Positions 1 to 15,091 of a stretch of 15,091 bases of DNA are shown here, in pieces. A program made the position numbers and the translations under genes. The DNA is taken from positions 1 to 15,091 of the forward strand of contig JAYZAL010000012.1 of assembly GCA_036339735.1 (NCBI GenBank), read 5' to 3'. Under the pieces are notes generated by a model. That model searched no databases. It had not been told where the DNA came from and saw only the letters and a list, made by a program, of their open reading frames with translations. The first letter of the stretch is position 1; each line of letters opens with the position of its first letter. The DNA comes from Candidatus Poribacteria bacterium (GTDB lineage: Bacteria > Poribacteria > WGA-4E > UBA9662).

Positions 1-1
1 C

Positions 2-196
2 TCTGAATGGAAATGGGGATATATTGATTACCGTGGCGAATATGTGATTCAGCCACAGTTTGAGGTTGCACATCCTTTCGTCAATGGCATTGCTAAAGTG
101 AAGCGGGATGGTCTTTGGGAGCTAATAAATAGAGAAGGCCAGCTAATGCCAACCAATGCTAACCAAACTAGTACTGGTAAGAAGAATTCTTCTTAG
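2..196 (+). CDS. WG-repeat (KWG/WG_beta_rep) protein, C-terminal fragment (5' end outside window)
   Basis: Not in the ORF track. Manual translation of frame 2 gives SEWKWGYIDYRGEYVIQPQFEVAHPFVNGIAKVKRDGLWELINREGQ...SS*, with stop TAG at 194-196. This fits the WG-repeat pattern KWGyId..G..vi.pqf..a..F..G.A.V. Confidence 0.88.
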   Translation, partial: SEWKWGYIDYRGEYVIQPQFEVAHPFVNGIAKVKRDGLWELINREGQLMPTNANQTSTGKKNSS

Positions 197-203
197 TTTT
201 TCA

Positions 204-1004
204 TCAACTTAACGAATAACCAACCACTTTCATTCCTTGCGCAAAAGCCCCCTGGCGTTGTTCTTCTCCACCGGGAGAACATGGCCGACCTTCCCAAGCA
301 CAGTTGAGATCGCTGGGGCAAAAATAGATGCCGACACGATCATCAAAGGTTACGGCTTCGTCATAACACCCGTGCGGTTTGACCAGTTTGTCTCCGCCCA
401 GATATTCGTTATGATCATAAATCGAATGGTAGATTGGGTGGGATAGGTCAAGGCGTTCAACTTTAATAGGTAAACCGCTTCGCGCATAAAGCTACGCCCC
501 CCCATTTAACCGAACGTCGCAATCCTCAATTTGCAAGAACCCTCCCCTTTCTAAAAACTCTTTCAATCGCCATTTTTGCTTTTGGGGAAATCAAAAACCG
601 ATATGCCCCGTAGCAAATAAGTAAGAGTGAGCAAACAAGCAATCGTCATCAATTGATACAAACTGTGGATTGCTATAAAGTACCACATCAATATTTGTCA
701 GCTGGTCAAGCATCTGAGTAAACCTTAGATCAGATGGCCAACGGTAATAATCAACAATATTAGTGTACCAATCTCCACCTGGGTACTTAAGCCGAATAAA
801 AACAAATTTTTCACCTGTTGGCTCTTTGTCTGGCCGATGGTGATCAACAATGCCGTACGGAGAACCATGATAGGTATTTGTTTCATTTTCAGAAGGAAGT
901 TCAGTCGGGTTCTCGTTGGCAAGGATTGGAAGTTGGGAAAGGAGCAAACCGGTTGTAATTAATTCTGCAGATTTTTTGAGAAAAATCCGACGGGGTGCTG
1001 TCAT
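204..1004 (-). pseudogene. Tat-exported DUF4159-family protein, disrupted by in-frame TGA (591-593) and TAG (492-494)
   Basis: The N-terminus has the twin-arginine motif RRIFLK plus a hydrophobic stretch. DUF4159-like motifs FIRLKY.GGDW and YLFATGH precede the TGA. The same frame then continues LKEFLERGGFLQIED, and after the TAG continues LDLSHPIYHSIY...SDLNCAWE...AFAQGMKVVGYSLS* to a TGA at 204-206. Confidence 0.82.
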
Positions 1005-1331
1005 TCCTATTAGCTTTCCAAAATTACGATTTAGGTTTTAGGCATGAGTAGATCTGTATAGTCAGCTACAAGCCTGAACCGAGATTTAATACGGACAAAA
1101 TTGAAAGTCAGGCTATCGATATGCTTTTTCATAGGCGTTTGGCACCCTAACACATTTTTTTGATAGTCTCAAGTGAGTTACTGATATAAACCTAGACGCC
1201 GTGTAAATTGTAGAAAATTGACTTAAGACATCAGTAGCATCGGGCTAATTTTAGTTATCAGTTAAGTTGAAAAACACCCACAGTTGATCACCAATTGAAG
1301 ATATGATAGTTTATAGAAAAACAGGTGATAC

Positions 1332-2210
1332 ATGTCAAAATGGACATCTTGTGGCTACTCGTTTGATTTGAGTCCGTCCAAATTTGGTGAATTACGCTCT
1401 TCTAATGAGATTTTAAGTAATCGATGCAAATTGCAAACACGAATGCAAGAAGATGGGTATCTATTACTCAGACAAATTTTGGATCTAGATCTAGTAGAAA
1501 ATTGCCGACTAGAGTTAGCCGAGAAATTAGATTCTATTGGCGATATTGACCAACGCTACCCATTGATTGATACTATACAAAACCCAGAGTCTCAGAACGC
1601 TCAAATGTCGGCTACAGGATTTGCTAAAAAGCTGGGGGCTGGGCCAGCAGTTCGCAGATTAGTACATGAAGGTAGAATGATCAATTTTTACACACACTTT
1701 TTTGGTCAGTCAGTTCGTCCTTTGGACTTTGTTTGGGTAAGATCTGTGAGAGTAGGACATTCTGCCCCTTGCCATTATGACTGGGTCTACATGGGGCGTG
1801 GTTCTAACCGGCTATTAACCAGCTGGACGCCAATTGGAAATGTACCAAAAATCGAGGGAGCCTTAGCAGTTTTGGAAGGCTCGAACCACTTTGACGAACT
1901 AATTCAAAGCTATGGCTCAATCGACGTTGATGATCAAAGCTCAAACCCACACAGATTCAAAGGTTCCTACACACAAAACCCTGTCGAAGTACAAAGACAG
2001 TTTGGAGGACGTTGGTTAACAACAGATTTTCAGGCTGGTGATGTACTGATCTTTACCATGCATACTATGCACTGTTCATTGGATAATCAGTCTCCCGACA
2101 ACAGAATTCGACTGAGCATTGATACTCGTTACCAACCGGCTATCGATCAGGTTGACGAACGTTGGGTTGGGGACAATCCAATTGCTCATTCTGATGCTGC
2201 TAAGCGTTAA
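1332..2210 (+). CDS. PhyH-family Fe(II)/2-oxoglutarate-dependent dioxygenase
   Basis: 292-aa ORF with EDGYLLLR, HxD (CHYD), SWTPIG, GALAVLEGS, AGDVLIF...H (distal His) and RLSIDTRY. SD-like AGGTG lies upstream. Confidence 0.9.
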   Translation: MSKWTSCGYSFDLSPSKFGELRSSNEILSNRCKLQTRMQEDGYLLLRQILDLDLVENCRLELAEKLDSIGDIDQRYPLIDTIQNPESQNAQMSATGFAKKLGAGPAVRRLVHEGRMINFYTHFFGQSVRPLDFVWVRSVRVGHSAPCHYDWVYMGRGSNRLLTSWTPIGNVPKIEGALAVLEGSNHFDELIQSYGSIDVDDQSSNPHRFKGSYTQNPVEVQRQFGGRWLTTDFQAGDVLIFTMHTMHCSLDNQSPDNRIRLSIDTRYQPAIDQVDERWVGDNPIAHSDAAKR

Positions 2211-2253
2211 AGTAAGAAATTAGATTGGCCCTAACGAGTTTTATACTCTGCTG

Positions 2254-2281
2254 TTCTCAAAATTTACTCTTGTGATATAAT
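2254..2281 (+). promoter_or_regulatory. Putative sigma70 extended -10 promoter for the XRE regulator
   Basis: TGTGaTATAAT at 2271-2281 (perfect -10 with TG extension). A weak -35 TTCTCA at 2254-2259 has a 16-nt spacer. It lies about 80 nt upstream of the ATG. Confidence 0.6.
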
Positions 2282-2361
2282 GGAATTAAATGTTACGTTT
2301 AGTAGACGAGTGTTACCAAACCAGCAGACCAAAAAGTTCAGATTAAAGATTAGTAAGGGAT

Positions 2362-2703
2362 ATGAGGATGTCAATTGCTGAACTCATTAAACGCCGTAGA
2401 TTAGAACTTAAGATGACACAGACCCAACTAGCTAGCAATGCTAACCTGACACCAGCCGCCATCTCCCAATTTGAATCTGGAACACGGAAGCCTTCGTTTA
2501 ACACACTCTCTAGTTTGGCTGATGCCCTAAAAGTAACTACCGATTATTTGCTGGGTAAGCGAAAGCAAAACTATGATGACCTATTGGCTGATCCGCAAGT
2601 TGCCCTAATGTTTAGAGGTTTGATAGAATTACCAGAGCGCGATAAAGAAACGATGTTGGAGTTTTATCAATTTTTGAAGGATAAACACGAGAAAAACAAG
2701 TAG
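2362..2703 (+). CDS. XRE/Cro-C1 family helix-turn-helix transcriptional regulator
   Basis: IKRRR...MTQTQLA....LTPAAISQFESGTRKPS...L..LADALKVTTDYLLG is a canonical HTH_3 domain, followed by a short helical C-terminal domain. The start may be the second Met (2368), given TAAGGG upstream. Confidence 0.93.
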   Translation: MRMSIAELIKRRRLELKMTQTQLASNANLTPAAISQFESGTRKPSFNTLSSLADALKVTTDYLLGKRKQNYDDLLADPQVALMFRGLIELPERDKETMLEFYQFLKDKHEKNK

Positions 2704-3104
2704 ATACTATTCTGGTAGATAACATCATTAAAGCTCTAGCTTGTGATTTTTCTGGTAGGGTTTGGGATGTTTGCATAATGATTTAGGCTGACTGTGCGTT
2801 TCGTAGTCAACCAAGAAAACTGGCCTAAAAAACCTGATTCATTTCCTGTCGTTATTATAAACTAAATCTTATCTATTTAAACCTTGCCCCTGTCTGTTCG
2901 AATAATCAAATATAAGATCTTTTAGGAAAGCTGGAACCAATGTTCTCTTGCCTGATTACCTAGATCAGATTTTGCTACTCAATAACATCTGATATCGAAA
3001 AGAACTCGAGTCGAATTGGTGCATAAAGAAATAGTACACCAAAAAGTCCTAATGATGATATTTGTTTTAGGTATTCTTGTTAGCAGTGTTCGGCCATTTG
3101 GTAA

Positions 3105-4955
3105 CTAGCCTCCAACAGGGACGCTGCCGGGATCAATATTCGGGGTTCGAAGTTGGATTGGAGATAACATTTTTTCTTCCACACACCAAGGGAAATCGTA
3201 TCGTGGTGGATTAACAAATCGATCAGTTTTAATCTCGAGTGTAATACCACAACGAGGTTGTAAATCAACTTGTAACCATTTAGAGTCAACAGAGATAGTT
3301 CTCTTACCAATGGTGATACTTTTGAACTGGTGTTCACCGAAAGCTCCTGCAAGGCTGACTACAGAACGAGGAGAAAGAGGATTCAAATTAATCAGCTGAA
3401 GGCGAAATCGGCACTCGGAAATTTGATCAACCAATGCTGATACGTCCTCAGGCAAACCTGCTCTCTTATTCATTAAGTCGAAGTGTCGAATTCGACAATT
3501 CAACAATCCACCGTGATAGATGGCAGTTGGACCACCGGTGGTCAGTTGCAACAGCCCCTGTGGCCAAACAGGATTACGTGTTTGCCAGTGGTGAACATCC
3601 CAAGTCTCTGGGGCAGTATTATCGTTTTCGATCATCTCTAGGCGTTGATTCATATAATCGATATTTGCAGCTAAAACGCGTTCCGGGAATTCCGGAAATT
3701 CACCACGAACGAAGCGAAACCAACCACCATTATCATCCCGACCATCAATCTGTTTTAACCATTTTTCAGAATCGGTTAAGCGATTAACTCGTTCCAAGTC
3801 GACCTCTGATTCGGAGACATTCCATAGTTGAATAGGAAAATTGGAAGGCATCAGCCTGTAGCTATCCCATCCATTGTCAGTATGCTTGAACGGGACAATC
3901 CTATTCCCATCTTGGTTTTTGCCTAAAGACCATAGCAAATCTTGCTGAGAACGAGCTAAGTTTAGATGATCAATATTGCCTGTTAGCATCAAAGCATTGC
4001 AGCCCGAAATTAATGTTGATTCCAACAAATTGGTAGCTCCGTGGGGCCAATACCATCCGTAATAACCTCCCCACCACTTACCATTCATATTTTCACCAAT
4101 TACTCCATTTAGACCGATATTGTCGGGAATGATACCGTCGTTCTTTTCTGCTCGCTTCTGCCAAGCGCCCAAGTAATCCAAAATCCATTTTTCATACTTG
4201 GTGTCATTGTCGTAGGCAAATGCGTGTAAGATCAAGCTAGTCGCAGTCAGATTGAGAGGGACATCCCCTTTTGCCATCCGCTGATTGAGCAATTTTAGAA
4301 TAATAGTAAAAGTTTCATCGTCGTTCCAATTTGCCTTTTCAGTTTCAACGCCGGGGATGTCTTCGTAAGGTGCAGGGTAGTTGGATAGAACATCCCTATG
4401 AGTAGACCAGTCTTCTCGAGACATTTCCAGTCTGGGCCCCCGACTACCATTTAGTGGTGAGCGAATTAACTTCCGATCTGGATCGTAGTTTCTTGCCTCC
4501 GAGTCCTCATCAAGGTAAAAACTGGCAAACCTTCTTGCTCGTTGCCTATCCTTGAAGACAAAAGGATCACAAAGGCCAAGGTAATAAAGATAGCTGTAAC
4601 TTTCGCCATGATGCATCCAATCATAATATGCATCGAACTCGCGATAAATTTGACCATATTCGGTAAACTGCCAAGTGATACTATCCCACAATTGCCTTGA
4701 CATTTGGTGAATCTGCTCGCTTCCACCAACCAAATAGAATAAAGGAAAGGTCCAAAAACTTTCGTAGGCATCATCGGAGCCGTCCATACCCGGCCAACTA
4801 TCTTTCCAGATTAGGGTATTATCGGAACGAACATACTGATTAGCGTAGAAGACACCGGCCTGATTCATCAGGTCAATTAGACGCCTTTGTTGAATCGCCC
4901 AATTAGGTGGATTAACATATTGGTCAGCACAAATAGACGGAATTCGGTCGGACAT
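3105..4955 (-). CDS. Uncharacterised ~616-aa Trp/Asp-rich cytoplasmic protein, possibly an alpha/alpha-barrel enzyme
   Basis: Long uninterrupted ORF. SD AAGGA (4965-4969, minus strand) sits 9 nt before the ATG at 4955, so this start is preferred to the TTG at 4964. Motif-like blocks are DGSDDAYESF, YYDWMHHGE and PDNIG..G..GE...GKWWGGYYGW. No signal peptide is evident. Confidence 0.85.
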   Translation of the reverse strand: MSDRIPSICADQYVNPPNWAIQQRRLIDLMNQAGVFYANQYVRSDNTLIWKDSWPGMDGSDDAYESFWTFPLFYLVGGSEQIHQMSRQLWDSITWQFTEYGQIYREFDAYYDWMHHGESYSYLYYLGLCDPFVFKDRQRARRFASFYLDEDSEARNYDPDRKLIRSPLNGSRGPRLEMSREDWSTHRDVLSNYPAPYEDIPGVETEKANWNDDETFTIILKLLNQRMAKGDVPLNLTATSLILHAFAYDNDTKYEKWILDYLGAWQKRAEKNDGIIPDNIGLNGVIGENMNGKWWGGYYGWYWPHGATNLLESTLISGCNALMLTGNIDHLNLARSQQDLLWSLGKNQDGNRIVPFKHTDNGWDSYRLMPSNFPIQLWNVSESEVDLERVNRLTDSEKWLKQIDGRDDNGGWFRFVRGEFPEFPERVLAANIDYMNQRLEMIENDNTAPETWDVHHWQTRNPVWPQGLLQLTTGGPTAIYHGGLLNCRIRHFDLMNKRAGLPEDVSALVDQISECRFRLQLINLNPLSPRSVVSLAGAFGEHQFKSITIGKRTISVDSKWLQVDLQPRCGITLEIKTDRFVNPPRYDFPWCVEEKMLSPIQLRTPNIDPGSVPVGG

Positions 4956-5073
4956 ATTATTCAATCCTTAATGCGTAATGACTTGAGAACGGAAACAATA
5001 CAAGCTATCATAAATCGTCAGTGAGATCAACAAGGTAATACAAGTGAGGAGTTGAAAACCTCAGGTTTCTGCC

Positions 5074-5101
5074 TTGACATTCCTTGACAATATCATATAA
5101 T
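5074..5101 (+). promoter_or_regulatory. Consensus sigma70 promoter upstream of the asparaginase gene cluster
   Basis: TTGACA (5074-5079), 16-nt spacer, TATAAT (5096-5101). Both hexamers are perfect consensus, in a divergent intergenic region. Confidence 0.8.
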
Positions 5102-5193
5102 GAAGCGACCTTAGATTAAGGTAGAGTCGAACAGTTTTGGGTTGAGGCTGTGTCCGGTTGGTCAATCTAATTTTATGATTAATACCAGGCCAA

Positions 5194-6243
5194 ATGCAAT
5201 ATCGAGATACTGTACCATTAGTAGAAAAAACACGTGGAGAATTAGTGGAAACAGTTCATCGTGGCGTGATTGCTATTGTTTCTCCGGATGGTGAAATTCG
5301 GTATTCAGCTGGTAATCCTGAGTTTAAAACATTCTTGCGCTCTTCGGCGAAACCATTCCAGTTGTTGCCAACGATCGAAGCTGGAGCTATAAAAGCCTAC
5401 GACTTACAAGACCACGAAATTGCAGTTATGTGTTCTTCTCACAGTGGTGAAGAGTATCATTTGGATGCTGTACGTCAGATTTTGTCCAAAATTGGCTTAG
5501 ACGAATCGGCGTTAGACTCAGGGGTGCACCCACCGAGCGACGTATCTAGTCATGAGACCATGATAAGGAAAGGCCAAAAGCCAACTGCCATCCATTCGAA
5601 TTGTTCTGGAAAGCATGCTGGTATCTTAACTTTGTGCCAGCTGAAAGGTTTTTCAACCCTGAGCTATTTGGATCAGTCTCATCCAGCACAACAGTTAATC
5701 AGGCAAACATTGTCAGAATTGGCAGAAGTTGAGTTGTCTGATGCTGATGTCGCAATTGATGGCTGTGGAGTGCCAACCTTTGCTCTCCCCGTTTGGCGAA
5801 TTGGGTTGCTATTTGCTAAATTTTCCACAGCCTCTACAAATGGAACCAATCGCCAGCAGGCTTTGGCACAAATTCGAAATTCTATGACAAAAAAACCCAT
5901 GTATGTGTCAGGAAGCAATCGTTTCTGCGCCAAACTGACAAGACATTACCCTAACCAACTCGTAATGAAATCGGGAGCCGAGGGAGTTTATGGCCTCGGC
6001 CTGGCAGAAACTGGTTTGGGGTTGGGCATGAAAATAGAAACTGGTGCCAGCGAACCGAGGGAAATCTCAATTTTAGAAACATTACGACAATTATCGCAAT
6101 GCGAGTCAATTTCGATGTCTAGTTATTTGCGCCAAAGTTTTGGTCGCCTTAGTGGACAAAAGCCAATATATAATTTTCACAACCAGAATGTTGGACGAAC
6201 CTATCCCGTTTTCCAACTTCGATCAACCACCCCAAAAAATTAA
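5194..6243 (+). CDS. L-asparaginase II (Rhizobium etli-type, class 3 asparaginase)
   Basis: Family motifs RSSAKPFQ, SHSGE, NCSGKH (Zn-ligand Cys/Lys), DGCG.P and KSGAEG are all present. Confidence 0.92.
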   Translation: MQYRDTVPLVEKTRGELVETVHRGVIAIVSPDGEIRYSAGNPEFKTFLRSSAKPFQLLPTIEAGAIKAYDLQDHEIAVMCSSHSGEEYHLDAVRQILSKIGLDESALDSGVHPPSDVSSHETMIRKGQKPTAIHSNCSGKHAGILTLCQLKGFSTLSYLDQSHPAQQLIRQTLSELAEVELSDADVAIDGCGVPTFALPVWRIGLLFAKFSTASTNGTNRQQALAQIRNSMTKKPMYVSGSNRFCAKLTRHYPNQLVMKSGAEGVYGLGLAETGLGLGMKIETGASEPREISILETLRQLSQCESISMSSYLRQSFGRLSGQKPIYNFHNQNVGRTYPVFQLRSTTPKN

Positions 6244-6290
6244 ATCCTATCCTTTTTGATCAGTTTGTACTGATCAATGGAGTCAAAAAT

Positions 6291-7280
6291 ATGTCAGATG
6301 TTAAAGTTGGTTTTGTTGGTACGGGCGGGATGGCAAACGCTCATATCAGTCAAGTTGATACTATTGAAGAAGCCACTATTGTTGCTTTTTGCGATATAGA
6401 GGAAGAAAGGGCTAAAGTCGCCGCTGACCGTTACGGAGGCCAGTATTATACTGATGCTCGGCGACTAATTGACGAAACTGAAGTAGACGCAATTTATTTT
6501 TGTCTGCCACCATTTGCCCACACAGATATTGAACGGTTAGCAGCAGATAGCGGCCGACATATTTTTGTTGAAAAACCTGTATCTATGACGATAGATCACG
6601 GATTATCAGTTCTAGAAGCGGTGAATAAAAATTCAGTTATAAGCGGCGTTGGTTATCAAGGACGTTACCAAAACTCAGAAATAGCCCTGCGAGACTATTT
6701 GAAGGATAAAACAATCGGTATGGTTGTTAGCCATCGTTGGGGTGGAATCGCCGGAGGTTCAGATCATTGGTGGCGAGTAATGGAAAAATCAGGAGGTATG
6801 CTACACGAGCAAGCTACACATCAGGTCGATATGATTCGCTATTTGGCAGGTGAGATAACGGAAGTCTATAAATTATCAGCCATGAAAATTAACACTGACC
6901 AACCTAACCATACTATTCCCGATGCAGAAGTCGTTAGTCTCAAATTTGCCAGTGGTGCAGTTGGCCAAATCACTACCACTTGTGCACTAACCGGTGGGGG
7001 TGGGAGCATGCGAACTGATTTCATTCTCGAGGACCATCAAATTGTCCAACTCGGTTGGGGCAATTTCGAGATTCAGCCTCAAAATTTTGACACCATTGAA
7101 ATTTCGACTGACCCGCAGCTTGGCATTGATCAAGCTTTTATACAAGCGATCCAAACAAACAACCAGTCGCTAATCAAATCGTCTTACGCAGATGGACTAC
7201 AATCAGCTCTTGTGTCAATCTGTGCTAACCAATCATCAGAAGAAGGGAAACCAGTTGCTGTCCCCCAAATTGTTTCCTAA
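6291..7280 (+). CDS. Gfo/Idh/MocA-family NAD(P)-dependent oxidoreductase
   Basis: Rossmann motif VGFVGTGGMA, PPFAH, HIFVEKP and SGGMLHEQATHQVD. SD GGAG at 6279-6282. Confidence 0.93.
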   Translation: MSDVKVGFVGTGGMANAHISQVDTIEEATIVAFCDIEEERAKVAADRYGGQYYTDARRLIDETEVDAIYFCLPPFAHTDIERLAADSGRHIFVEKPVSMTIDHGLSVLEAVNKNSVISGVGYQGRYQNSEIALRDYLKDKTIGMVVSHRWGGIAGGSDHWWRVMEKSGGMLHEQATHQVDMIRYLAGEITEVYKLSAMKINTDQPNHTIPDAEVVSLKFASGAVGQITTTCALTGGGGSMRTDFILEDHQIVQLGWGNFEIQPQNFDTIEISTDPQLGIDQAFIQAIQTNNQSLIKSSYADGLQSALVSICANQSSEEGKPVAVPQIVS

Positions 7281-7316
7281 AGCTAAAGAAAGTAGACATC
7301 TACACTCGAGTTTGTT

Positions 7317-8576
7317 TTGAATTCCATTAAATGGCCCAAAATTGGTGTTGGTAAAATAGATATCACACCTGACTATCCTATTCGTTTGTCTGGTTATGGT
7401 GTTAGGGAAACTGAAACAACAAAGGTCGTACAACCCATCTGGGCTAGATGTTTAGTTATTATTCCGCCCAATCAGCAACCGTTCATTCTTTTGTGCGTAG
7501 AAAATTGTGGTATTCCAGAACACATTACTGAAACGGTGGCTCAGCGCTTGAAAGTTGAAGAAAATATTCCGCGCCACCATTTTACACTGAGCGTCACTCA
7601 TACTCACTCAGCGCCTTTCGTATCAGGTGCACTGGAGACACTTTTTGGTCAATCAATACCTACAGACCATCAAGCCCGGATTGACCGGTATACTGTCGAG
7701 TTAACTGATAAGTTGGTCTTTGTTGTTCAATCGGCCTTGTCTAAGGTTGAAATTGGCCAACTTTCCTGGGGGTTAAGTTCAGTTAATTTTGCCAGAAACC
7801 GTCGGGACGAAGGGGGGCCGGTGGATCACGATTTACCCGTTATCTTGGCCTCACGAAAGAATGGCGAACCGCTAGCGATTTGGTGCAGTTACGCTTGTCA
7901 TACCACGACAGTATCTTTTAATACGATTAACGGAGATTGGGCAGGCTATGCGATGTCTGAGCTTGAAGCTGATTATCCAACGGCAACGGCTTTTGTCTCT
8001 ATAGGTTGTGCTGGTGATGCAAACCCATATCCGCGTGGCGAATATGAGCATGCGAAACTGCATGGCCATTCAATAGCCGAAGAAGTTAGTAGACTAATGA
8101 ATACTAAACTGAAACCACTGGATTTAGACTCTTTGAGGGGTAAAATAAACTGGATTAAATTGCCTTTTGATAAAATTCCTACACGAGCGGAGTGGAAAAA
8201 ACGGGTCAAAGAAGGAGGCGCTGTCGGCTATCATGCTGAGGTTCAGTTAGCAAAAATCGATAGTGGTCAGAGTTTACCATCGCACCTCTCTTATGCGGTT
8301 CAGGTATGGCAATTTGGTCGTGACCTATCAATCGTATTTTTAGCCGGTGAAGTCGTGGTTGATTTTGCAGTTCGATTGAAAAATGAGTTGGGCAAAGATA
8401 CACTTTGGATCAATGCGTATTGTAACGATCTACCGGCTTACATTCCTTCCGTTCGTATTCTCAAAGAGGGCGGCTATGAAGGGAAAACCGCAATGATTTA
8501 TTTCAATCGCCCGACATATTTCAAACCAGACGTTGAAGAGCTGGTTGTTTCCGCGGTTCATAGCTTATTGTCTTAA
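7317..8576 (+). CDS. Neutral/alkaline ceramidase-like metallo-amidohydrolase
   Basis: KIDITP, LSGYG.R, THTHSAP (metal His motif), YACH.T, GCAGDANP, LAGEVVVDF and AYIPS...EGGYE. The TTG start is uncertain and the substrate is unknown. Confidence 0.85.
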   Translation: MNSIKWPKIGVGKIDITPDYPIRLSGYGVRETETTKVVQPIWARCLVIIPPNQQPFILLCVENCGIPEHITETVAQRLKVEENIPRHHFTLSVTHTHSAPFVSGALETLFGQSIPTDHQARIDRYTVELTDKLVFVVQSALSKVEIGQLSWGLSSVNFARNRRDEGGPVDHDLPVILASRKNGEPLAIWCSYACHTTTVSFNTINGDWAGYAMSELEADYPTATAFVSIGCAGDANPYPRGEYEHAKLHGHSIAEEVSRLMNTKLKPLDLDSLRGKINWIKLPFDKIPTRAEWKKRVKEGGAVGYHAEVQLAKIDSGQSLPSHLSYAVQVWQFGRDLSIVFLAGEVVVDFAVRLKNELGKDTLWINAYCNDLPAYIPSVRILKEGGYEGKTAMIYFNRPTYFKPDVEELVVSAVHSLLS

Positions 8577-8582
8577 CATACT

Positions 8583-10811
8583 ATGATTTTATTATTAACA
8601 CTTTTTCTGATTCTAGTCTATTGGCCACATCCTTCACTAGAACCAGATGTTATTCCATCAACGATTTCACAAGAAGAAGCTTTTTTCAAACAGATCATTG
8701 CTAACCAGAATCTAGACCGGTCGTTTCCACCTGTCAAAACCCGACCTGATAACCCATTTACAAAGGAAAAAGTTGAACTAGGCCGGCTGCTGTATTTTGA
8801 CCCTATACTGTCAGGCAAAAACGATATTTCTTGTGCTCACTGTCATCATCCAGATCTTGGGTTTTCGGATAATCGCGCTTTGTCAATGGGTATTGGTGGC
8901 TTAGGTGTTGGGCGAGAGCGGAAGAACGGTAGAATCTTGGCTCGATCTTCACCGACTATATGGAACACGACTTACAACCATTTACAATATTGGGACGGTA
9001 GGTCTATAGATCTAGAAGATCAAGCCAAAAACCCGATTCAGCATCCTGACGAAATGGGCCAAGATCCAGACCAATTAGTGGAAGAATTACAAAGCATTCC
9101 AGAGTATGTTCGCCAATTCGCTGCTAATTTCAATGACGGAGTAACTTTCCAAAATGTCACCTATGCTATTGCTAGCTTTGAGCGTAGCCTTGTAACACAT
9201 GAATCACCTTTTGATAAATTTGCTAAAGGTGATTCATCGGCATTAACCCCCTCAGCTCAACGAGGTTTGAACATTTTTCGCTCTATGAAAACTCGTTGCT
9301 TTGAATGCCATAATTTTCCGACCTTTGCCAATCCTGATTTTAAAGTGATTGGCGTGCCCGATTCTCATTTAGAAACACCTGATTTGGGACGAGGTGGAAT
9401 TACAGGTAATTCGAATGACAACTTTGCCTTCAAAGTGCCATCGCTACGAAATATAGCCTTGACAGCTCCTTACATGCACAACGGCAGTCTCGATACACTG
9501 TCAGATGTAATTGACTTTTATGCTAAAGGTGGTGGAAGCAGCAAGGGGCTATCCAACATCGATGACAAAATCCGCCCATTTACCTTGGCAAAACAAGAAA
9601 AGGTAGACTTGATAGCTTTTCTTCACAGTTTAACTGATGAATCAAACAAGCCATCTATTCCCAGTGTTTTACCGTCTGGCCTGCCACCCGTTTCAAGACT
9701 CGAAAATCAATCTGTTGAGTTACAACGAGCCTCAAGATTAATCCCTAAAACACTTTCTTCGGTCAGTAAACATGGTAGCATCATTACAATTCAATCTGGA
9801 CAAAAGATACAAGACGGTATCAATCTTGCGGTGGCAGGAGATACAATCCGTATTATGCCCGGGTTGTACCATGAAACGCTCAGTGTTGATATATCAGGTG
9901 TAGTGATCGAAGGCGTATTAGAAGAAGGAAGTCGCCCAATTTTAGATGGTCTCGGAAAATTAGCTGATGGAATTATAGGTTCAGGAAGTAATATCACCCT
10001 TCGAAATTTGACAATCAGAAACTACACAGCTAACGGGGTCATGATCAATAGGGCCCACAATATAACTTTTGAAAAACTATATTGTCATGATACTGGATTG
10101 TATGGAGTTTATCCTGTTGAGTGCGTTGGTATTCACGTTGATAGCTGCGAAGTTACAGGAGTTAGGGATGCAGGGATATATGTTGGACAATCTAAAGATA
10201 TCGTAGTTGAAGATTGCCGAGTTTATAGTAATGTAACAGGTATTGAAATAGAAAATTCTGTCAACGCAGTAGTACAAAGAAATATAGCCTATGATAATGC
10301 AGGTGGAATTTTAGTTTTTCTCCTACCTAATAATCCGTCCAAATTCTCTCGCAACTGTCGGGTTATAAATAATCAAGTATTTGATAATAACCATGTCAAT
10401 TTTGCTGATCCTAATGCCGCGGTTAGTGGTGTGCCGTCCGGTAGTGGTATTATGATTATGGCTGCGGATGAAGTCGAGGTAGCTTATAACCAAATCACTG
10501 GTAACAACTCCTATGGTGTTGGTCTAATTGCACTTAGTAACCAGCCAAAAGGAAAAAAGCTTGATGTTGATCCTATTGCTTCTGGCTGCTGGATTCACGA
10601 TAACATTCTGGAAAATAATGGTAAACATCCAGATTCCAAACTTCTTGAATTGGGGCTGCCGGGTGCCGATTTGTTGTGGGACGTAACGGGATATGATAAT
10701 AGTTGGCAACAACCAGGAGCAACTTCTATGCCTTGGATTTTGCCTGGTAAATCTTGGCCAGAAATCCTTCGTAGAGCCAATTGGCGATTGTGGAAAACAC
10801 TTTCGAACTGA
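8583..10811 (+). CDS. Fusion: exported di-heme cytochrome c peroxidase/MauG-family domain plus parallel beta-helix (TIGR03805-like) domain
   Basis: Hydrophobic N-terminus, then [16 protein letters not shown] (8832-8846), QYWDGR, CFECH (9297-9311) and [19 protein letters not shown]. The C-terminal half has [25 protein letters not shown] and [10 protein letters not shown] repeats. Confidence 0.9.
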
Positions 10812-10866
10812 ACAGTTAATAATAAATTAAGGAGAATTAATAACTCTCATACAAAAGAGTAAAACC

Positions 10867-11391
10867 GTGATGTCAGAAATAAAGAGTAGTACGACCCATC
10901 GAGAGATGGCGGCCGAAGCCGTTGAATCAGTTGCTGTTGGCATAGTAACTGTTAGCGACTCTAGAACTCCCGAAACAGATACTAATGCCATTTTTTTGCG
11001 AGGTGAATTGGAGCAAGAAGGTCATAGAATAATGGCTTACCGAATAGTGCCAGATGAACCAAAGCAAATAGAAATTGTTTTGGAGGAAATGATCGAAAGT
11101 TCAGCCCGTATCATAATTTTTAACGGTGGCACAGGCATAACACCTCGGGACCGGACCTTTGATGTTATTGACCGGAAGTTAGAAAAACGGTTGACAGGAT
11201 TTGGTGAAATCTTCCGCATGTTGAGTTATGATCAAGTTGGAGCTGCCGCCATGCTCTCCCGTGCGACTGCTGGTACTTATAAGGGTAAACTCATCATTTC
11301 AACGCCGGGGTCCCCCCAGGCAGTCAAATTAGCCTGGGATAAATTAATTAAACCGGAATTGCAACATTTAGCTTGGGAGATAATTCGGTAA
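10867..11391 (+). CDS. moaB: MoaB/MogA-family molybdenum cofactor biosynthesis protein
   Basis: [43 protein letters not shown] and PGSP. The start is ambiguous (GTG 10867 or ATG 10870). Confidence 0.9.
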
Positions 11392-11446
11392 ACAAATATT
11401 AGGAAACTAATCGCTAGTGAAAACCAGAGTTGTGGAAACGATTTTA

Positions 11447-12241
11447 CTACACACGCCCTTCGAAAGAGCAGCCAAGGACTTGCTTGAAGGGTGGCATTTT
11501 AGGAGCATCAGTGACCGAATGGTCCTGCCATGAACTGGCTCGCATGTAGTGGACTGCGTAACCCCTCCTCCTCTGATTCGACAAATTAGCTTCACTCATG
11601 TGTAAAGTCAAGCTATGGTGAAAACTGACACTTCCTGGGCGGAGTTCTACCGGTACTATTGGCCAAGGGGCATGGCCAAAGTCAGGAATGAAATTGGCCA
11701 ATTGTTCACCTCGTAACATTCCCCAGCGATGTGTACCTGGAATAAAATGTAAGCATCCATTTTCTATAGATGATTGGTCTATTGCTGTCCAAGCAGTTAC
11801 CAGATCCATAGGAAAAATATCTCGCCATGAGGCTGAATCTTGATGCCATGCTTGGGCACTGCCAGTATCTGGAGCTTTCATAAATAGCTGGTCACCATAC
11901 ATTTTAATGTCTTTCACACCAAGTAGGTCAGTTACCACCGCCACAATTTCAGGGTGCTTAGCGTGCTGCCACATACGGTCATCGTAAACAGCAATATCAT
12001 ACAATTTTCGAACTGACAAAACTTGGTCAACTGTGGTATTTTCGCCAGAACGAAAAACTGGCTCTAGCTGAATGCTAGTTTGGGGAATGTAGGGCAATTT
12101 GCCCGCAGCAATGCTGTCGGCCCTTTGTCCTAGTGTTTTTAATTCTTCTTGGTGTAATAAATCTTCAATGACCAAAAAACCATTTCTTTGAAATTGATCA
12201 ACTTGTTCCGTTGTGAGATAATTTAGGGGAGTAATACTCAT
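11447..12241 (-). CDS. PhyH-family Fe(II)/2-oxoglutarate-dependent dioxygenase
   Basis: FQRNGFLVI, QLFMKAP, WHQD (HxD), WTAID....NGCL.FIPGTH, PGSVSFHH..TLH.S..N....RR. SD AAGGAG lies 7 nt before the ATG at 12241, preferred over the TTG at 12295. Confidence 0.92.
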   Translation of the reverse strand: MSITPLNYLTTEQVDQFQRNGFLVIEDLLHQEELKTLGQRADSIAAGKLPYIPQTSIQLEPVFRSGENTTVDQVLSVRKLYDIAVYDDRMWQHAKHPEIVAVVTDLLGVKDIKMYGDQLFMKAPDTGSAQAWHQDSASWRDIFPMDLVTAWTAIDQSSIENGCLHFIPGTHRWGMLRGEQLANFIPDFGHAPWPIVPVELRPGSVSFHHSLTLHMSEANLSNQRRRGYAVHYMRASSWQDHSVTDAPKMPPFKQVLGCSFEGRV

Positions 12242-12369
12242 TAATCGACTCCTTAAAAAGTCCAAAAATTTTCCATAATTTGCTCCAATAGTCAAGGGAG
12301 TTTAGCAATCAATAATTCTCAGACATTACTATGTGAACTTTTGATTTTTTTGAATGCAGGTGTCCAATT

Positions 12370-13290
12370 TTGACCCGATTAATAAATCTTCAACAACCAA
12401 ATTGCCTAGAAGAAAGAGGTATACAACATCAACAATTGAACGATCCTGATTCATTTCAAGGTGTTCTGGATAAATATTGGCCTTGGCACTACGACCCAAG
12501 CCAAATACCATCAATAAAACGTTTATTGTTAGCTGATCTAAAATGGAAACCCGTTACTCCATTTACAAAAACGACTTCATCAGTAACATCACAACAACTG
12601 ATTTCACCTCTTGGTTTAGCTCTCTCAAATTGTGACACTGACTTGGTTCGTGCATCCTTGGAAATTCTCGACAGCACAGTTGAAATCGTAGCAGGTGATG
12701 TTCTGCTTGGTACGACGGAGTTAGATCCAATACTTGTTGACCACTTTCGAATTGGCAGGTATCCAGTAACCAATGCTCAATACGAACGCTTCGTTGAGGC
12801 TACAGACCATCCACCTCCAGCTGATTGGAGAAACGAGGACCCAGAGCTAGATGGCCGGTTTTTACCCAATTTCGGTGATCACCCTGTATCCCATGTCAGT
12901 TGTACGGACGCAGAAGCTTATGCAGATTGGATTGGAGGGAGATTACCTAGTTTTGAGGAGTGGGAACGGGCAGCACGTGGGGATGATGCTCGGAACTTTC
13001 CATGGGGAAATGAGATTGATAAACCACGTTGTAATACGGCCGAAGCGGGAGTTGGTAATACAACTCCTGTTGGTACTTTTCCCGATGGTATTAGTCCCTT
13101 TGGTTGCTACGATCTACTAGGCAACGTTTGGGAGTGGAGTTCAACATGGTATGACGAAAATCAAACTTTTCGTCTTGTCAGAGGCGGTGCTTGGTATTAC
13201 AATCACGATCATGCTAGCTGTAGTAGCTACGATTTTTTTAGTCATGATTATTCTGAATTTGTGATAGGTTTTCGAGTTGCTTTTGATTAG
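12370..13290 (+). CDS. FGE-sulfatase-fold (SUMF1/EgtB/PvdO-family) protein
   Basis: YPVTNAQY, HPV..VS..DA.AYA.W.G.RLP...EWERAARG, FPWG, YDLLGNVWEW, RGGAW and GFRV, plus an N-terminal extension of about 100 aa that I do not recognise. TTG start with AGGTG upstream. Confidence 0.88.
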   Translation: MTRLINLQQPNCLEERGIQHQQLNDPDSFQGVLDKYWPWHYDPSQIPSIKRLLLADLKWKPVTPFTKTTSSVTSQQLISPLGLALSNCDTDLVRASLEILDSTVEIVAGDVLLGTTELDPILVDHFRIGRYPVTNAQYERFVEATDHPPPADWRNEDPELDGRFLPNFGDHPVSHVSCTDAEAYADWIGGRLPSFEEWERAARGDDARNFPWGNEIDKPRCNTAEAGVGNTTPVGTFPDGISPFGCYDLLGNVWEWSSTWYDENQTFRLVRGGAWYYNHDHASCSSYDFFSHDYSEFVIGFRVAFD

Positions 13291-13313
13291 GTTTTTACTA
13301 AAAAGATAGACAA

Positions 13314-14390
13314 ATGAATATACATATGTTAGATACACCTTCACTTTGGGTTGATTTAAATCAACTCGAAGCGAATATAGCGACTTTGGCGGATTTCTTT
13401 CGTCGCTCAAAAGTAGATTGGCGACCGCATGTTAAAGGAATTAAAATCCCTGCAATTCTTCATAAAGCTCTAGAAGCCGGAGCCATCGGGGGAACTTGTG
13501 CCAAAATCAGTGAAGCTGAAGTGATGGTTAACGGTGGGATATGTGATATTTTAATTGCTAATCAAATTATCGGCCAACGGAAAATTGAGAAACTCGCGCG
13601 ACTATGTCATAAAGCAGACGTGAAGGTGGCCGTTGATCACCCAAATAATGTGAAACAAATGGGAGTCATCGCGACCCAAAATAAAACTGAGATTGGTGTT
13701 CTTATTGAGATAAATACTGGAATGAATCGCGCAGGCATACAACCTGGACAGCCTGCTGTTGATTTAGCTCTATTAGTCAATGAAACACCTGGCCTAAATT
13801 TTCGAGGTCTTATGGCTTGGGAAGGACATGCTGTTAGCATCGAAAACGAATGTAAAAAGCGAGAAACAATCAGTAAATCAGTTAAAGAACTACGTCAAAC
13901 TATAGAAATGGTTAAGGCCGCCAATTTGACTATGAATATTGTTAGTGGCGGAGGAAGTGGAACTTACAACATAATCACATCAATGGCGATACTAACTGAA
14001 GTTCAGGCCGGTGGGGCAATGTTTGGTGATGCTTCTTATTGTCATTGGGGAGCAAAGACACAACCATCGCTTTTTGTTCGAAGTATGGTTACTAGTCGAC
14101 CAGACCCATATCGGATCATTTTTGATGCAGGTTTTAAGGCTTTACCTGCTTGGGCTGGTCAACCTCCGATTGCTATTAATCTACCTGGATTTGATACATT
14201 TCACCCTTCGGCAGAACACGGCACCGTAAAGCTTACTTGCCCGAATTACGATATTCAACCTGGACAGATTTTTAATTTCATTGTTGGCTATGGTGATTCA
14301 ACTGTTTTTCTTCACGATATGTTATATGGCATCCGAGGTGAGAGTATTGAAATGACCTGGCCTATTACGGGCCGAGGTAAAATTCATTAA
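13314..14390 (+). CDS. DSD1/D-threonine aldolase-like fold-type III PLP-dependent enzyme
   Basis: LDTPSL.VD, RPHVK (PLP Lys41), CAKISEAEVM, EINTGMNRAG, WEGH, SGGGSGT, EVQAG, DAGFKAL and SAEHG. Confidence 0.9.
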   Translation: MNIHMLDTPSLWVDLNQLEANIATLADFFRRSKVDWRPHVKGIKIPAILHKALEAGAIGGTCAKISEAEVMVNGGICDILIANQIIGQRKIEKLARLCHKADVKVAVDHPNNVKQMGVIATQNKTEIGVLIEINTGMNRAGIQPGQPAVDLALLVNETPGLNFRGLMAWEGHAVSIENECKKRETISKSVKELRQTIEMVKAANLTMNIVSGGGSGTYNIITSMAILTEVQAGGAMFGDASYCHWGAKTQPSLFVRSMVTSRPDPYRIIFDAGFKALPAWAGQPPIAINLPGFDTFHPSAEHGTVKLTCPNYDIQPGQIFNFIVGYGDSTVFLHDMLYGIRGESIEMTWPITGRGKIH

Positions 14391-14447
14391 TCTTAAGCTT
14401 TTCAAAAAGAATGTCACTAAATAATTAAGGCGTGAAACCTATACTAT

Positions 14448-14467
14448 CACTAGGTTTAAACCTAGTG
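14448..14467. repeat. Perfect 20-bp palindrome CACTAGGTTTAAACCTAGTG
   Basis: The sequence equals its own reverse complement. It lies between the PLP-enzyme stop and the rrn promoter. Confidence 0.9.
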
Positions 14468-14512
14468 CCGATGGATTAATGTGAGAAGGTGTAATAAAAA
14501 CTTCGTTTTCTC

Positions 14513-14550
14513 TTGACACTATATATGTCTAGTGTTATACTTCCCCCCGC
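14513..14550 (+). promoter_or_regulatory. rRNA operon promoter
   Basis: TTGACA (14513-14518), 17-nt spacer, TATACT (14536-14541) with a TG extension at 14533-14534. It has an AT-rich upstream region and a GC-rich discriminator (TCCCCCCGC). Confidence 0.85.
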
Positions 14551-14566
14551 TTCGCAAGGAAGACAT

Positions 14567-14626
14567 TGATCAGCATGTAGTGCTGATCAGGTAGTGTCCA
14601 ATTGCGTTGTAGACTGATCTTTGAAA
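14567..14626 (+). promoter_or_regulatory. rrn leader antitermination elements (boxB-like hairpin and boxA)
   Basis: Hairpin TGATCAGCA-TGTAG-TGCTGATCA (14567-14589) followed by boxA-like TGATCTTTGAAA (14615-14626), in the expected order. Confidence 0.7.
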
Positions 14627-14750
14627 ACTGAATACATATTAAGTGAACGCTATGCGATGTAATGGCCATTTGGTCATTCATCGTCTGATAAGGTAGTATA
14701 CAAAATTCTTGTCAAAACCTGCTCGAGAGAGTAGGCTTGAGAAAACGACT

Positions 14751-15091
14751 CTTTTGGAGAGTATGATACCGGCTCAGGACGAACGCTGGCGGCGTGGATT
14801 AGGCATGCAAGTCGAACGAGAATCTTAACTTCGGTTATGAAGAGAGTGGCGAAAGGGTGAGTAACGCGTAGGTAATTTGCCCTTGAGACAGGAATAACAT
14901 CCCGAAAGGGTTGCTAATACCTGATAACATCTATTAACCCTCGGGTTTTTGGATCAAATGAAGGCTCTGCTTTCGCTCAAGGAGAAACCTGCGTCCTATT
15001 AGCTTGTTGGTAGGGTAATGGCCTACCAAGGCGATGATGGGTAGCTGGTCTGAGAGGATGGTCAGCCACATTGGGACTGAGACACTGCCCA
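14751..15091 (+). rRNA. rrs: 16S rRNA, 5' portion (truncated by window end; 5' end approximate)
   Basis: AGAGTATGATACCGGCTCAG, GAACGCTGGCGGCGTG, CATGCAAGTCGAACG, GGGTGAGTAACGCGT, GCTAATAC, ATTAGCTTGTTGGT, GGTCTGAGAGGATG and GGGACTGAGACAC occur in 16S order. Confidence 0.99.

Follow-up and report, generated by a model that had tools for sequence, protein, structure and literature searches.

A MauG-type di-heme domain fused to a TIGR03805-like beta-helix in Candidatus Poribacteria: a candidate extracytoplasmic oxidative system

His/Tyr di-heme enzymes are prized for their long-range radical chemistry, and among them, to our knowledge, only MauG and MbnH have known substrates, BthA being an orphan. 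A 15,091-nucleotide stretch of DNA from a Candidatus Poribacteria bacterium (GenBank assembly GCA_036339735.1, contig JAYZAL010000012.1, positions 1 to 15,091; hereafter the window) holds a gene, at 8583–10811 on the plus strand, that raises the question of what such an enzyme would act on when its presumptive partner is part of the same polypeptide. The original prediction, made from the sequence alone, took the product for a MauG-type di-heme domain fused to a TIGR03805-like beta-helix, the beta-helix being perhaps the substrate of the hemes or a platform that binds substrate or metal. Here we describe the heme ligand register of this protein, an invariant site in its beta-helix, and the different heme modules to which such beta-helices are coupled.

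Results

The gene is a single open reading frame (ORF) with an ATG start, encoding 742 amino acids followed by a stop codon. In profile searches, the Pfam family PF03150 (CCP_MauG) matched residues 61–218 with an E-value of 9.2e-54 (182.6 bits against a gathering cut-off of 25.6), and the NCBIfam family TIGR03805 matched residues 409–689 (228.8 bits against a cut-off of 141.5; 231.6 bits for the same domain scored on the genome). Both scores are far beyond chance, and the two domain identities originally proposed were confirmed. Pfam repeats of the Beta_helix/NosD type covered approximately residues 438–603. The top NCBIfam match was TIGR04039, the MbnH family, at 234.8 bits, which lies under its cut-off of 362.85; matches to TIGR03791 (MauG; 220.5 bits, cut-off 443.85) and TIGR04247 (NosD; 41.3 bits, cut-off 300) were likewise under threshold. 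PF22842 is present in precomputed domain lists of fused-protein clusters, and our Pfam scan gave no PF22842 even at an E-value of 10.

A motif check recovered the features on which the heme assignment had been based, namely two CxxCH motifs (CAHCH, residues 84–88, and CFECH, residues 239–243), the inter-heme tryptophan (QYWDGR, residues 135–140), and the Q..P..EM pocket (residues 146–158), together with YMHNG...DFY at residues 297–313. The ligand register was read from phmmer alignments of residues 274–343 with PDB sequences, all without gaps. Tyr313 stood opposite residue 294 of the MauG chains (...AILFYNK, chain 263–296) and opposite the tyrosine of VIDIY in 6e1c (...VIDIYSEGG), the best local match around the ligand region (E = 1.9e-12) and an entry, titled only "Di-heme enzyme," that we take to be MbnH. 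It stood opposite the methionine of 3o5c (...AVNTM) and, in a full-length PDB search, that of 2c1u (VKIMS); methionine at this position is presumably the heme ligand of canonical peroxidases. The His/Met electron-transfer heme characteristic of those enzymes is therefore not found here, Tyr313 being at the methionine position. Tyr313, His88, His243, Trp137, Gln147, and Met158 were invariant in 127 full-length fused homologs, Glu157 was present in 126/127 and Pro151 in 124/127, and Asn128, Thr294, and Pro296, which we take to be calcium-site positions, were also kept. Register and conservation together point to Tyr313 as the predicted sixth ligand of heme 2. The portion of PMC6405878 available to us describes a six-coordinate His/Tyr heme in MauG and BthA, and a near-infrared bis-Fe(IV) signature that is abolished by the substitutions Y294H in MauG and Y463H in BthA.

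The environment of heme 1 also departs from that of the classical enzymes, in which, according to an excerpt of PMC10094543, the peroxidatic heme is blocked by the distal histidine of a mobile loop (His85 in the P. pantotrophus numbering) with Trp87 close by. PDB alignments set the GHGW of classical peroxidases opposite GIGG of the query, with Ile104 at its histidine, Gly106 at its tryptophan, and an insertion of ∼10 residues after GIGG. Only 6 of 244 aligned homolog domains had a histidine at the Ile104 position, and the mobile-loop distal histidine of canonical peroxidases is thus absent. Over the whole domain, similarity was highest to canonical peroxidases (E = 3.5e-54), followed by 6e1c (1e-43) and MauG (2.8e-23). 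Because the domain as a whole is nearer to canonical peroxidases than to 6e1c or MauG, it forms, as judged from these alignments, a branch of its own that has a MauG-type ligand set and is neither a MauG nor an MbnH orthologue.

In 271 proteins gathered by similarity to the query, and hence a biased sample, tyrosine occupied the ligand column in 258 of 265 aligned di-heme rows and methionine in 2. Predicted Tyr-type di-heme domains are thus common, both by themselves and in tandem or in fusions of other kinds. Tandem pairs were seen in proteins of 1100–1400 amino acids (P0139, P0141, P0144, P0147, P0152, and others), and adjacent gene pairs at five loci (L073, L079, L081, L082, and L095).

We then turned to the beta-helix. 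Genome samples were searched outward from TIGR03805 and are therefore unbiased toward heme genes. In a first set of loci, apart from these samples, TIGR03805 adjoined TIGR03806 at 3 of 3. One phylum of 251 genomes gave 9 hits in 8 genomes: 5 high scorers (404–410 bits), each followed by a TIGR03806-like gene, and 4 lower scorers (241–253 bits), each in a frame of 785–836 amino acids with a CCP_MauG domain. One class of 301 genomes gave 15 hits in 15 genomes, and a TIGR03806-like neighbor accompanied 13/13 high scorers. The other 2 hits of that class (L120 and L121; 198 and 175 bits) were each encoded directly after a distinct CCP_MauG gene in which the tyrosine of the predicted ligand position recurs (...EFY). 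Their beta-helix proteins (L120, 1210–2811, plus strand; L121, 1045–2724, minus strand) carry a membrane anchor at the N-terminus and, at the C-terminus, a mono-heme cytochrome c domain. All beta-helix hits in the two samples (9/9 and 15/15) adjoin or are fused to a di-heme gene.

A third phylum, with TIGR03805 in 42 of 135 genomes, gave a less uniform result. Its 30 best loci were examined with 1.5-kb flanks, and every one of them was of the high-scoring type; a TIGR03806-like gene was present in 17, a second beta-helix gene filled the flank in 4, and the contig ended in 2. The expectation that TIGR03805 normally pairs with TIGR03806 thus stood in the first set, the 251-genome phylum, and the 301-genome class (3/3, 5/5, and 13/13), and was met only in part in this phylum. 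Hits of its genomes with fused-type scores (223–255 bits) comprised 11 long frames (770–825 amino acids), the di-heme domain being confirmed in that of genome G123 (L008) only, and 7 short frames (336–399 amino acids), 6 of which lay on the same contig as a long frame, a few hundred bases apart. Tandem duplicates of beta-helix genes of the TIGR03806-paired type were often seen in one phylum (L123, L129, L136, L137; G716, G717, G710, G712, G720).

Two genomes (G123 and G139) have both a fused and a TIGR03806-paired system. At L051 the two domains are split: the di-heme gene ends in ...VPSGLPV and is followed by ∼60 nucleotides with a GAGAGG motif and then by a beta-helix gene with a lipoprotein-type signal. 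The possibility that TIGR03806 is a hidden CCP_MauG relative was rejected, since BLASTP aligned only a 10-residue heme motif and hhalign gave 54.6% probability over 19 columns; no relative of TIGR03806 was found in the PDB. The absence of homology beyond the heme motif makes CCP_MauG a truly different heme module, as had been supposed. These data indicate at least three kinds of coupling between the beta-helix and heme: the beta-helix may form one chain with CCP_MauG, be encoded separately from it (in some cases carrying its own mono-heme cytochrome c domain), or pair with TIGR03806.

Conservation across these arrangements was examined in an alignment of 90 beta-helix domains (53 of the paired type and 32 of the fused type, together with 2 paralogues encoded downstream, 1 domain from the plain split form, and 2 from the split form with cytochrome c), from which seven loci had been dropped, six near-copies or duplicates and L128. 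Ten residues, all present in the query, were each invariant in 90/90 domains: Tyr507, Pro511, Asp529, Tyr533, Glu555, Glu557, Asn558, Asn572, Asn602, and Asn606. Tyr510 was kept in 88/90 and Trp699 in ∼86/90. The invariant Asp and Glu residues lie on successive rungs and are flanked by two tyrosines. Pectate-lyase-type helices have cation sites, and Tyr/carboxylate sites favor hard ions such as Fe(III); by analogy, the site may resemble these. A NosD-like copper site was considered and rejected, as no conserved His/Met/Cys set was found; the paired type has Thr in place of His604, and the cysteine positions are variable. Look-alikes of the beta-helix part in the ESM Atlas were generic Beta_helix/NosD clusters only and included no structure.

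The fusion proved to be widespread. A word-indexed search of clusters at 90% identity scored 8000 candidates, of which at least 2029 clusters matched at E ≤ 0.001. Among the matches listed, 120/120 clusters carried PF03150 and PF13229 (54–100% identity, 737–822 amino acids), under generic source names only ("parallel beta-helix domain-containing protein," "cytochrome c peroxidase"). Named sources of clusters included KSB1, Marinimicrobia, Acidobacteriota, Rhodothermales, and Bacteroidota, and named genome records added Poribacteria (94% identity), Hydrogenedentes, and Blastocatellia. An exhaustive search of representatives returned 22261 proteins at E ≤ 0.001, the best 150 of which comprised 18 with both domains, 115 with the di-heme domain only, and 17 with the beta-helix only. 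In a FastTree phylogeny of 128 di-heme domains, 19/19 fused rows fell within one well-supported clade of 41 rows, which also has 18 stand-alone rows, some of them maybe gene fragments. Within a sample of the phylum (121 genomes), the full-length fusion was confined to the family of the window, in 3/3 genomes including that of the window, and was not found in the other 118 genomes searched. Two longer versions were seen, one with ∼350 additional N-terminal residues (L032, 5891–9094, plus strand; a 1068-amino acid open frame) and one with a C-terminal extension (P0126; 1001 amino acids).

A full-text search of the open-access literature, which leaves most subscription journals outside its scope, found no paper on the fusion. 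On that search, the fusion is a widespread and apparently undescribed design. Within that scope the original claim of novelty stood; the system is less exotic than its title had suggested, the fusion being very common in metagenomes and Tyr-type domains occurring in many other architectures. Fourteen DNA runs from 8 studies labeled marine or seawater contained 84–97% of the sampled words of the gene. Contigs at least 95% alike from four marine metatranscriptome libraries covered parts of the fusion ORF, and single RNA-library contigs spanned both gene junctions (X16: 8109–8666 and 10749–11087); presence in an RNA library is no proof of transcription, and coverage gaps over the gene carry no information.

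No general neighbor family was found among 28 fused loci, made up of the window, L008–L010, and 24 metagenome loci; seven loci with the gene cut by a contig end and L005–L007, near-copies of the window, were left out. A conserved operon partner was considered and rejected, because the biggest recurrent neighbor families occurred in 3–4 of the 28 loci each, some of them several genes off. The survey of the architecture thus gave more than 2000 clusters in many phyla and no conserved gene neighbors. In 3/28 loci (L008, 6138–7328; L039, 9370–10518; L010, 10241–10534), the next gene downstream of the fused one is a heme-less TIGR03805-type paralogue that keeps the invariant site; the short frames beside long frames in several genomes of the third phylum would be further cases. 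A MIP aquaporin gene is directly downstream in 3/28 related loci (L009, 10224–11132; L031, 9457–10344; L033, 3085–3969), a mono-heme cytochrome c gene directly upstream in 3/28 (L037, L038, and L041), YaaA a neighbor in one (L022), and KatG in one (L023). Aquaporins are able to conduct H2O2.

In the genome, which is 92% complete, the fusion gene is the one CCP_MauG gene above cut-off, cytochrome c assembly genes are present, and no MbnP-like gene was found, with no match to TIGR04052. No TIGR03806 gene was found in the window, and the best match in the genome scored 21.9 bits against a cut-off of 313.3. A Pfam and NCBIfam scan of the window ORFs found no nos genes and, as had been claimed, no mau or mbn genes, a genome-wide search for methylamine dehydrogenase not having been made. 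The second PF01578 (cytochrome c assembly) match of the genome (G000:C38:131282–131833, minus strand) contains one TGA and one TAG.

The features of the fusion gene are collected in Table 1. Pro15 of the N-terminal segment is invariant among homologs, and the segment probably acts as a Sec signal or signal anchor, which would place the protein outside the cytoplasm. In the C-terminal tail, Trp699 is common to the stand-alone beta-helix family as well, and Trp725 and the RRANWRLW helix are confined to the fused type.

Table 1. Features of the fusion gene, in window coordinates
Feature	Position	Strand	Basis
Fusion protein, di-heme domain plus beta-helix	8583..10811	+	ORF, Pfam, NCBIfam
N-terminal hydrophobic segment, residues 1-15	8583..8627	+	Sequence, homolog alignment
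CCP_MauG-superfamily di-heme domain, residues 40-375	8700..9707	+	PF03150, 182.6 bits; PDB relatives, E 3.5e-54
Heme 1 attachment motif, Cys84-Ala-His-Cys87-His88 (putative peroxide-reactive heme)	8832..8846	+	Motif; His88 in 127/127
Gly/Arg-rich loop in place of distal-His loop, residues 103-121	8889..8945	+	PDB alignments, homologs, PMC10094543 (excerpt)
Trp137, inter-heme tryptophan	8991..8993	+	Motif; 127/127
Heme 1 distal pocket, residues 146-158 (Gln147, Pro151, Glu157, Met158)	9018..9056	+	124-127 of 127
Heme 2 attachment motif, Cys239-Phe-Glu-Cys242-His243	9297..9311	+	Motif, conservation
Residues 297-313, YMHNG...DFY; Tyr313 (codon 9519-9521), predicted heme 2 sixth ligand	9471..9521	+	Alignments, conservation
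Linker, residues 355-408, including conserved P..IP..VPSGLP tail of di-heme domain	9645..9806	+	Homolog alignments
TIGR03805-type right-handed parallel beta-helix, residues 409-689	9807..10649	+	NCBIfam score
Rungs with invariant site, residues 507-607 (Tyr507, Pro511, Asp529, Tyr533, Glu555, Glu557, Asn558, Asn572, Asn602, Asn606)	10101..10403	+	90/90 domains
C-terminal Trp/Arg-rich tail, residues 690-742	10650..10808	+	Alignments

The fusion gene is flanked in the window by a ceramidase-like gene, MoaB, a GFO/IDH/MocA oxidoreductase, and asparaginase II. These neighbors are retained in L005 and L007, relatives that are 82–94% identical; ceramidase-like, MoaB, and other window neighbors were not retained in same-family genomes at 64–65% identity. 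The ceramidase-like ORF (7317–8576) and the fusion ORF are in frame, with a TAA stop and two codons between them, and the 6-nucleotide spacing recurs in L005 and L007; this is probably tight packing. No terminator-like plus-strand site was seen in 5194–11391 across five co-directional genes (asparaginase II, GFO/IDH/MocA, ceramidase-like, fusion, and MoaB), and a 12/12 match to the sigma-70 consensus (TTGACA, 16 nucleotides, TATAAT) lies at 5074–5101 on the plus strand, upstream of the asparaginase II gene. On the minus strand, 3105–4964 is an ORF of 619 amino acids that matches nothing in Pfam or NCBIfam at E ≤ 0.01 and is kept by position in L005 and L007.

Discussion

We tentatively propose that the beta-helix may well provide a constant substrate- or metal-binding site, with the His/Tyr di-heme domain as its H2O2-driven oxidant. 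The protein would then be a self-contained extracytoplasmic two-module oxidoreductase. Heme 1 (Cys84/Cys87/His88) would offer an open peroxide pocket (Gln147, Pro151, Glu157, and Met158) without an inhibitory distal histidine, and at heme 2 (Cys239/Cys242/His243) Tyr313 would supply the sixth ligand, the arrangement of MauG, MbnH, and BthA. H2O2 would oxidize both hemes, coupled via Trp137, to a shared high-valent state of the bis-Fe(IV) type, and the oxidizing equivalents would be handed on to the C-terminal beta-helix. There, Tyr507, Asp529, Tyr533, Glu555, and Glu557 on successive rungs might hold either a hard metal ion or else a compound of polar or sugar-like character, so that substrate and H2O2 would yield oxidized substrate and water.

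Across these arrangements the heme partner changes while the beta-helix site stays the same, which is the pattern expected if the beta-helix were the binding or catalytic center and the hemes its redox line. Because the invariant site is common to all wiring types, the beta-helix looks like a constant functional center and no passive target. Of the two roles first suggested for it, that of a platform is accordingly favored, and that of a substrate is kept below as a rival. No partner gene is conserved around the 28 fused loci or in the taxonomic family of the window, which also speaks for a self-contained system. The presence of cytochrome c assembly genes in the genome is in line with the proposal.

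Several observations weigh against this proposal. Over the whole domain the closest relatives are canonical peroxidases. The cytochrome c, YaaA, KatG, and aquaporin neighbors fit peroxide defense or an ordinary cytochrome c donor. The beta-helix has no recognizable redox cofactor site, and the Asn residues of the invariant set may be a purely structural ladder. In the third phylum, 7 of the 30 loci had other neighbors and no TIGR03806 gene within 1.5 kb, so that heme coupling by adjacency is strong but not universal. Finally, the accessible part of PMC6405878 reports that BthA Y463H still turns over as a peroxidase with an external donor, and a Tyr ligand would therefore be compatible with plain peroxidase activity.

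Comparison with known systems shows where the fusion protein stands. It shares with MbnH (TIGR04039, 6e1c) the CCP_MauG fold and a tyrosine in the same register (VIDIY in MbnH, VIDFY in the query); however, it scores under the TIGR04039 cut-off, no MbnP-like partner was found in its genome, and it has a fused beta-helix where MbnH acts on a separate Trp-rich copper protein. With MauG (TIGR03791, PDB 3l4m and related entries) it shares the predicted His/Tyr heme 2 (Tyr313 corresponding to Tyr294), the inter-heme Trp, the Gln/Pro/Glu/Met pocket, and the lack of a distal His, but it matches both the MauG profile and the structure weakly, as given above, and no mau genes were found in the window. 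Thr237 of the query is at the position of what we take to be Trp199 of MauG; the names of MauG residues other than Tyr294 are likewise our assumption. BthA of Burkholderia (PDB 6nx0) is a His/Tyr di-heme orphan without a mau operon, whereas its match to the query is weak (E = 1.1e-12, N-terminal half only), it has no beta-helix, and it lacks the inter-heme Trp and the Ca site that the query keeps. For BthA, the consulted section of PMC6405878 assigns no physiological substrate and describes a stable bis-Fe(IV) state.

Canonical di-heme peroxidases (3hq8, 2c1u, and 3o5c), the top overall matches, have the fold, pocket, Ca-site residues, and inter-heme Trp in common with the query, which differs in having Tyr313 for Met, a longer Gly/Arg loop for the GHGW loop, and the fused beta-helix. 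The TIGR03805/TIGR03806 pair has a beta-helix of the same family, with all ten invariant residues, and the same 1:1 coupling to a di-heme protein. The fused beta-helix is nevertheless a divergent subtype (229–255 bits fused against 373–444 bits paired), and its heme partner, of unrelated fold, is fused N-terminally in the query rather than encoded by a downstream gene. NosD (TIGR04247, PF05048) is a periplasmic right-handed beta-helix as well, but apart from the low score of the query, there is no nos context and no conserved His/Met/Cys copper set.

The beta-helix might instead be the target of the hemes. H2O2 would then be used once or a few times to oxidize Tyr or Trp residues of the protein's own beta-helix, or of a downstream heme-less paralogue, creating a protein-derived cofactor or metal site, much as MauG does with preMADH and MbnH with MbnP. 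The excerpts of PMC11951088 and PMC6405878 agree that the characterized His/Tyr di-heme enzymes with known substrates target Trp in a partner protein. The beta-helix does have invariant aromatic residues (Tyr507 and Tyr533, and nearly so Trp699), and both the paralogues directly downstream at L008, L010, and L039 and the short frames close to long frames in the third phylum (6 of 7, with the di-heme domain confirmed in G123 only) would suit maturation in trans. We nonetheless regard it as unlikely. A 1:1 covalent fusion of maturase and substrate would be wasteful, a WxW motif is lacking, no MbnP-like gene was found in the genome, and Thr237 takes the surface position assigned to Trp199 of MauG. 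The same aromatics are invariant in beta-helices paired with TIGR03806, which is unrelated to MauG, and one variant adds a plain electron-carrier cytochrome c; steady electron transfer therefore fits better than one-off maturation.

Equally doubtful, in our estimate, is an ordinary periplasmic cytochrome c peroxidase that scavenges H2O2 with electrons from a soluble cytochrome c, the beta-helix serving to tether or target it to the envelope or a polysaccharide. In its favor, carbohydrate binding is frequent among Beta-helix/CASH domains, canonical peroxidases head the PDB matches, and the genome has no other CCP_MauG protein above cut-off. The peroxide-related and cytochrome c neighbors described above are in line with it, as is the peroxidase activity that BthA keeps with artificial donors (PMC6405878, in the part available). 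These neighbors are sporadic, though, at 8/28 loci in all and several of them closely related, and the place of Met at the electron-entry heme is taken by Tyr in all 127 fused proteins. An invariant beta-helix site that is heme-linked in unrelated gene arrangements also exceeds what a tether needs.

It is highly unlikely that the protein is a component of respiratory or extracellular electron transfer whose hemes only relay electrons, H2O2 not being the physiological partner: TIGR03806-paired relatives have a plain di-heme cytochrome, and the Shewanella literature, in the passages seen, mentions SO2931, the gene beside SO2930 (the namesake of TIGR03806), in passing as a putative outer-membrane cytochrome homolog, but a full heme 1 peroxide pocket is kept in 124–127 of 127 fused proteins.

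Returning to the beta-helix as a binding site with the di-heme domain as its oxidant, we can extend the proposal one step further, to a possibility that we consider quite improbable. TIGR03805-type beta-helices would be an unrecognized class of periplasmic redox enzymes with interchangeable heme modules, whose Tyr/Tyr/Asp/Glu/Glu site binds a hard metal ion such as Fe or Mn or matures into a tyrosine-derived cofactor, and the fused form, through a MauG-like bis-Fe(IV) di-heme, would be an H2O2-driven oxidase of metal (Fe2+/Mn2+) or of a small molecule. If this were true, it would be the first His/Tyr di-heme enzyme with a target other than a partner-protein tryptophan.

The fused protein probably oxidizes something bound at its beta-helix, and the presumptive partner is covalently attached, so that enzyme and target would be obtained in one expressible chain. 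The natural split, paired, and cytochrome c-extended versions define the constant module. The fusion thereby offers an experimental handle on the role of the uncharacterized TIGR03805/TIGR03806 systems and on the reach of MauG-type chemistry beyond tryptophan cofactor biogenesis. Members of the family abound in marine, soil, and symbiont bacteria, and any activity that they have, be it the oxidation of metals or glycans or the use of peroxide, would therefore matter environmentally.

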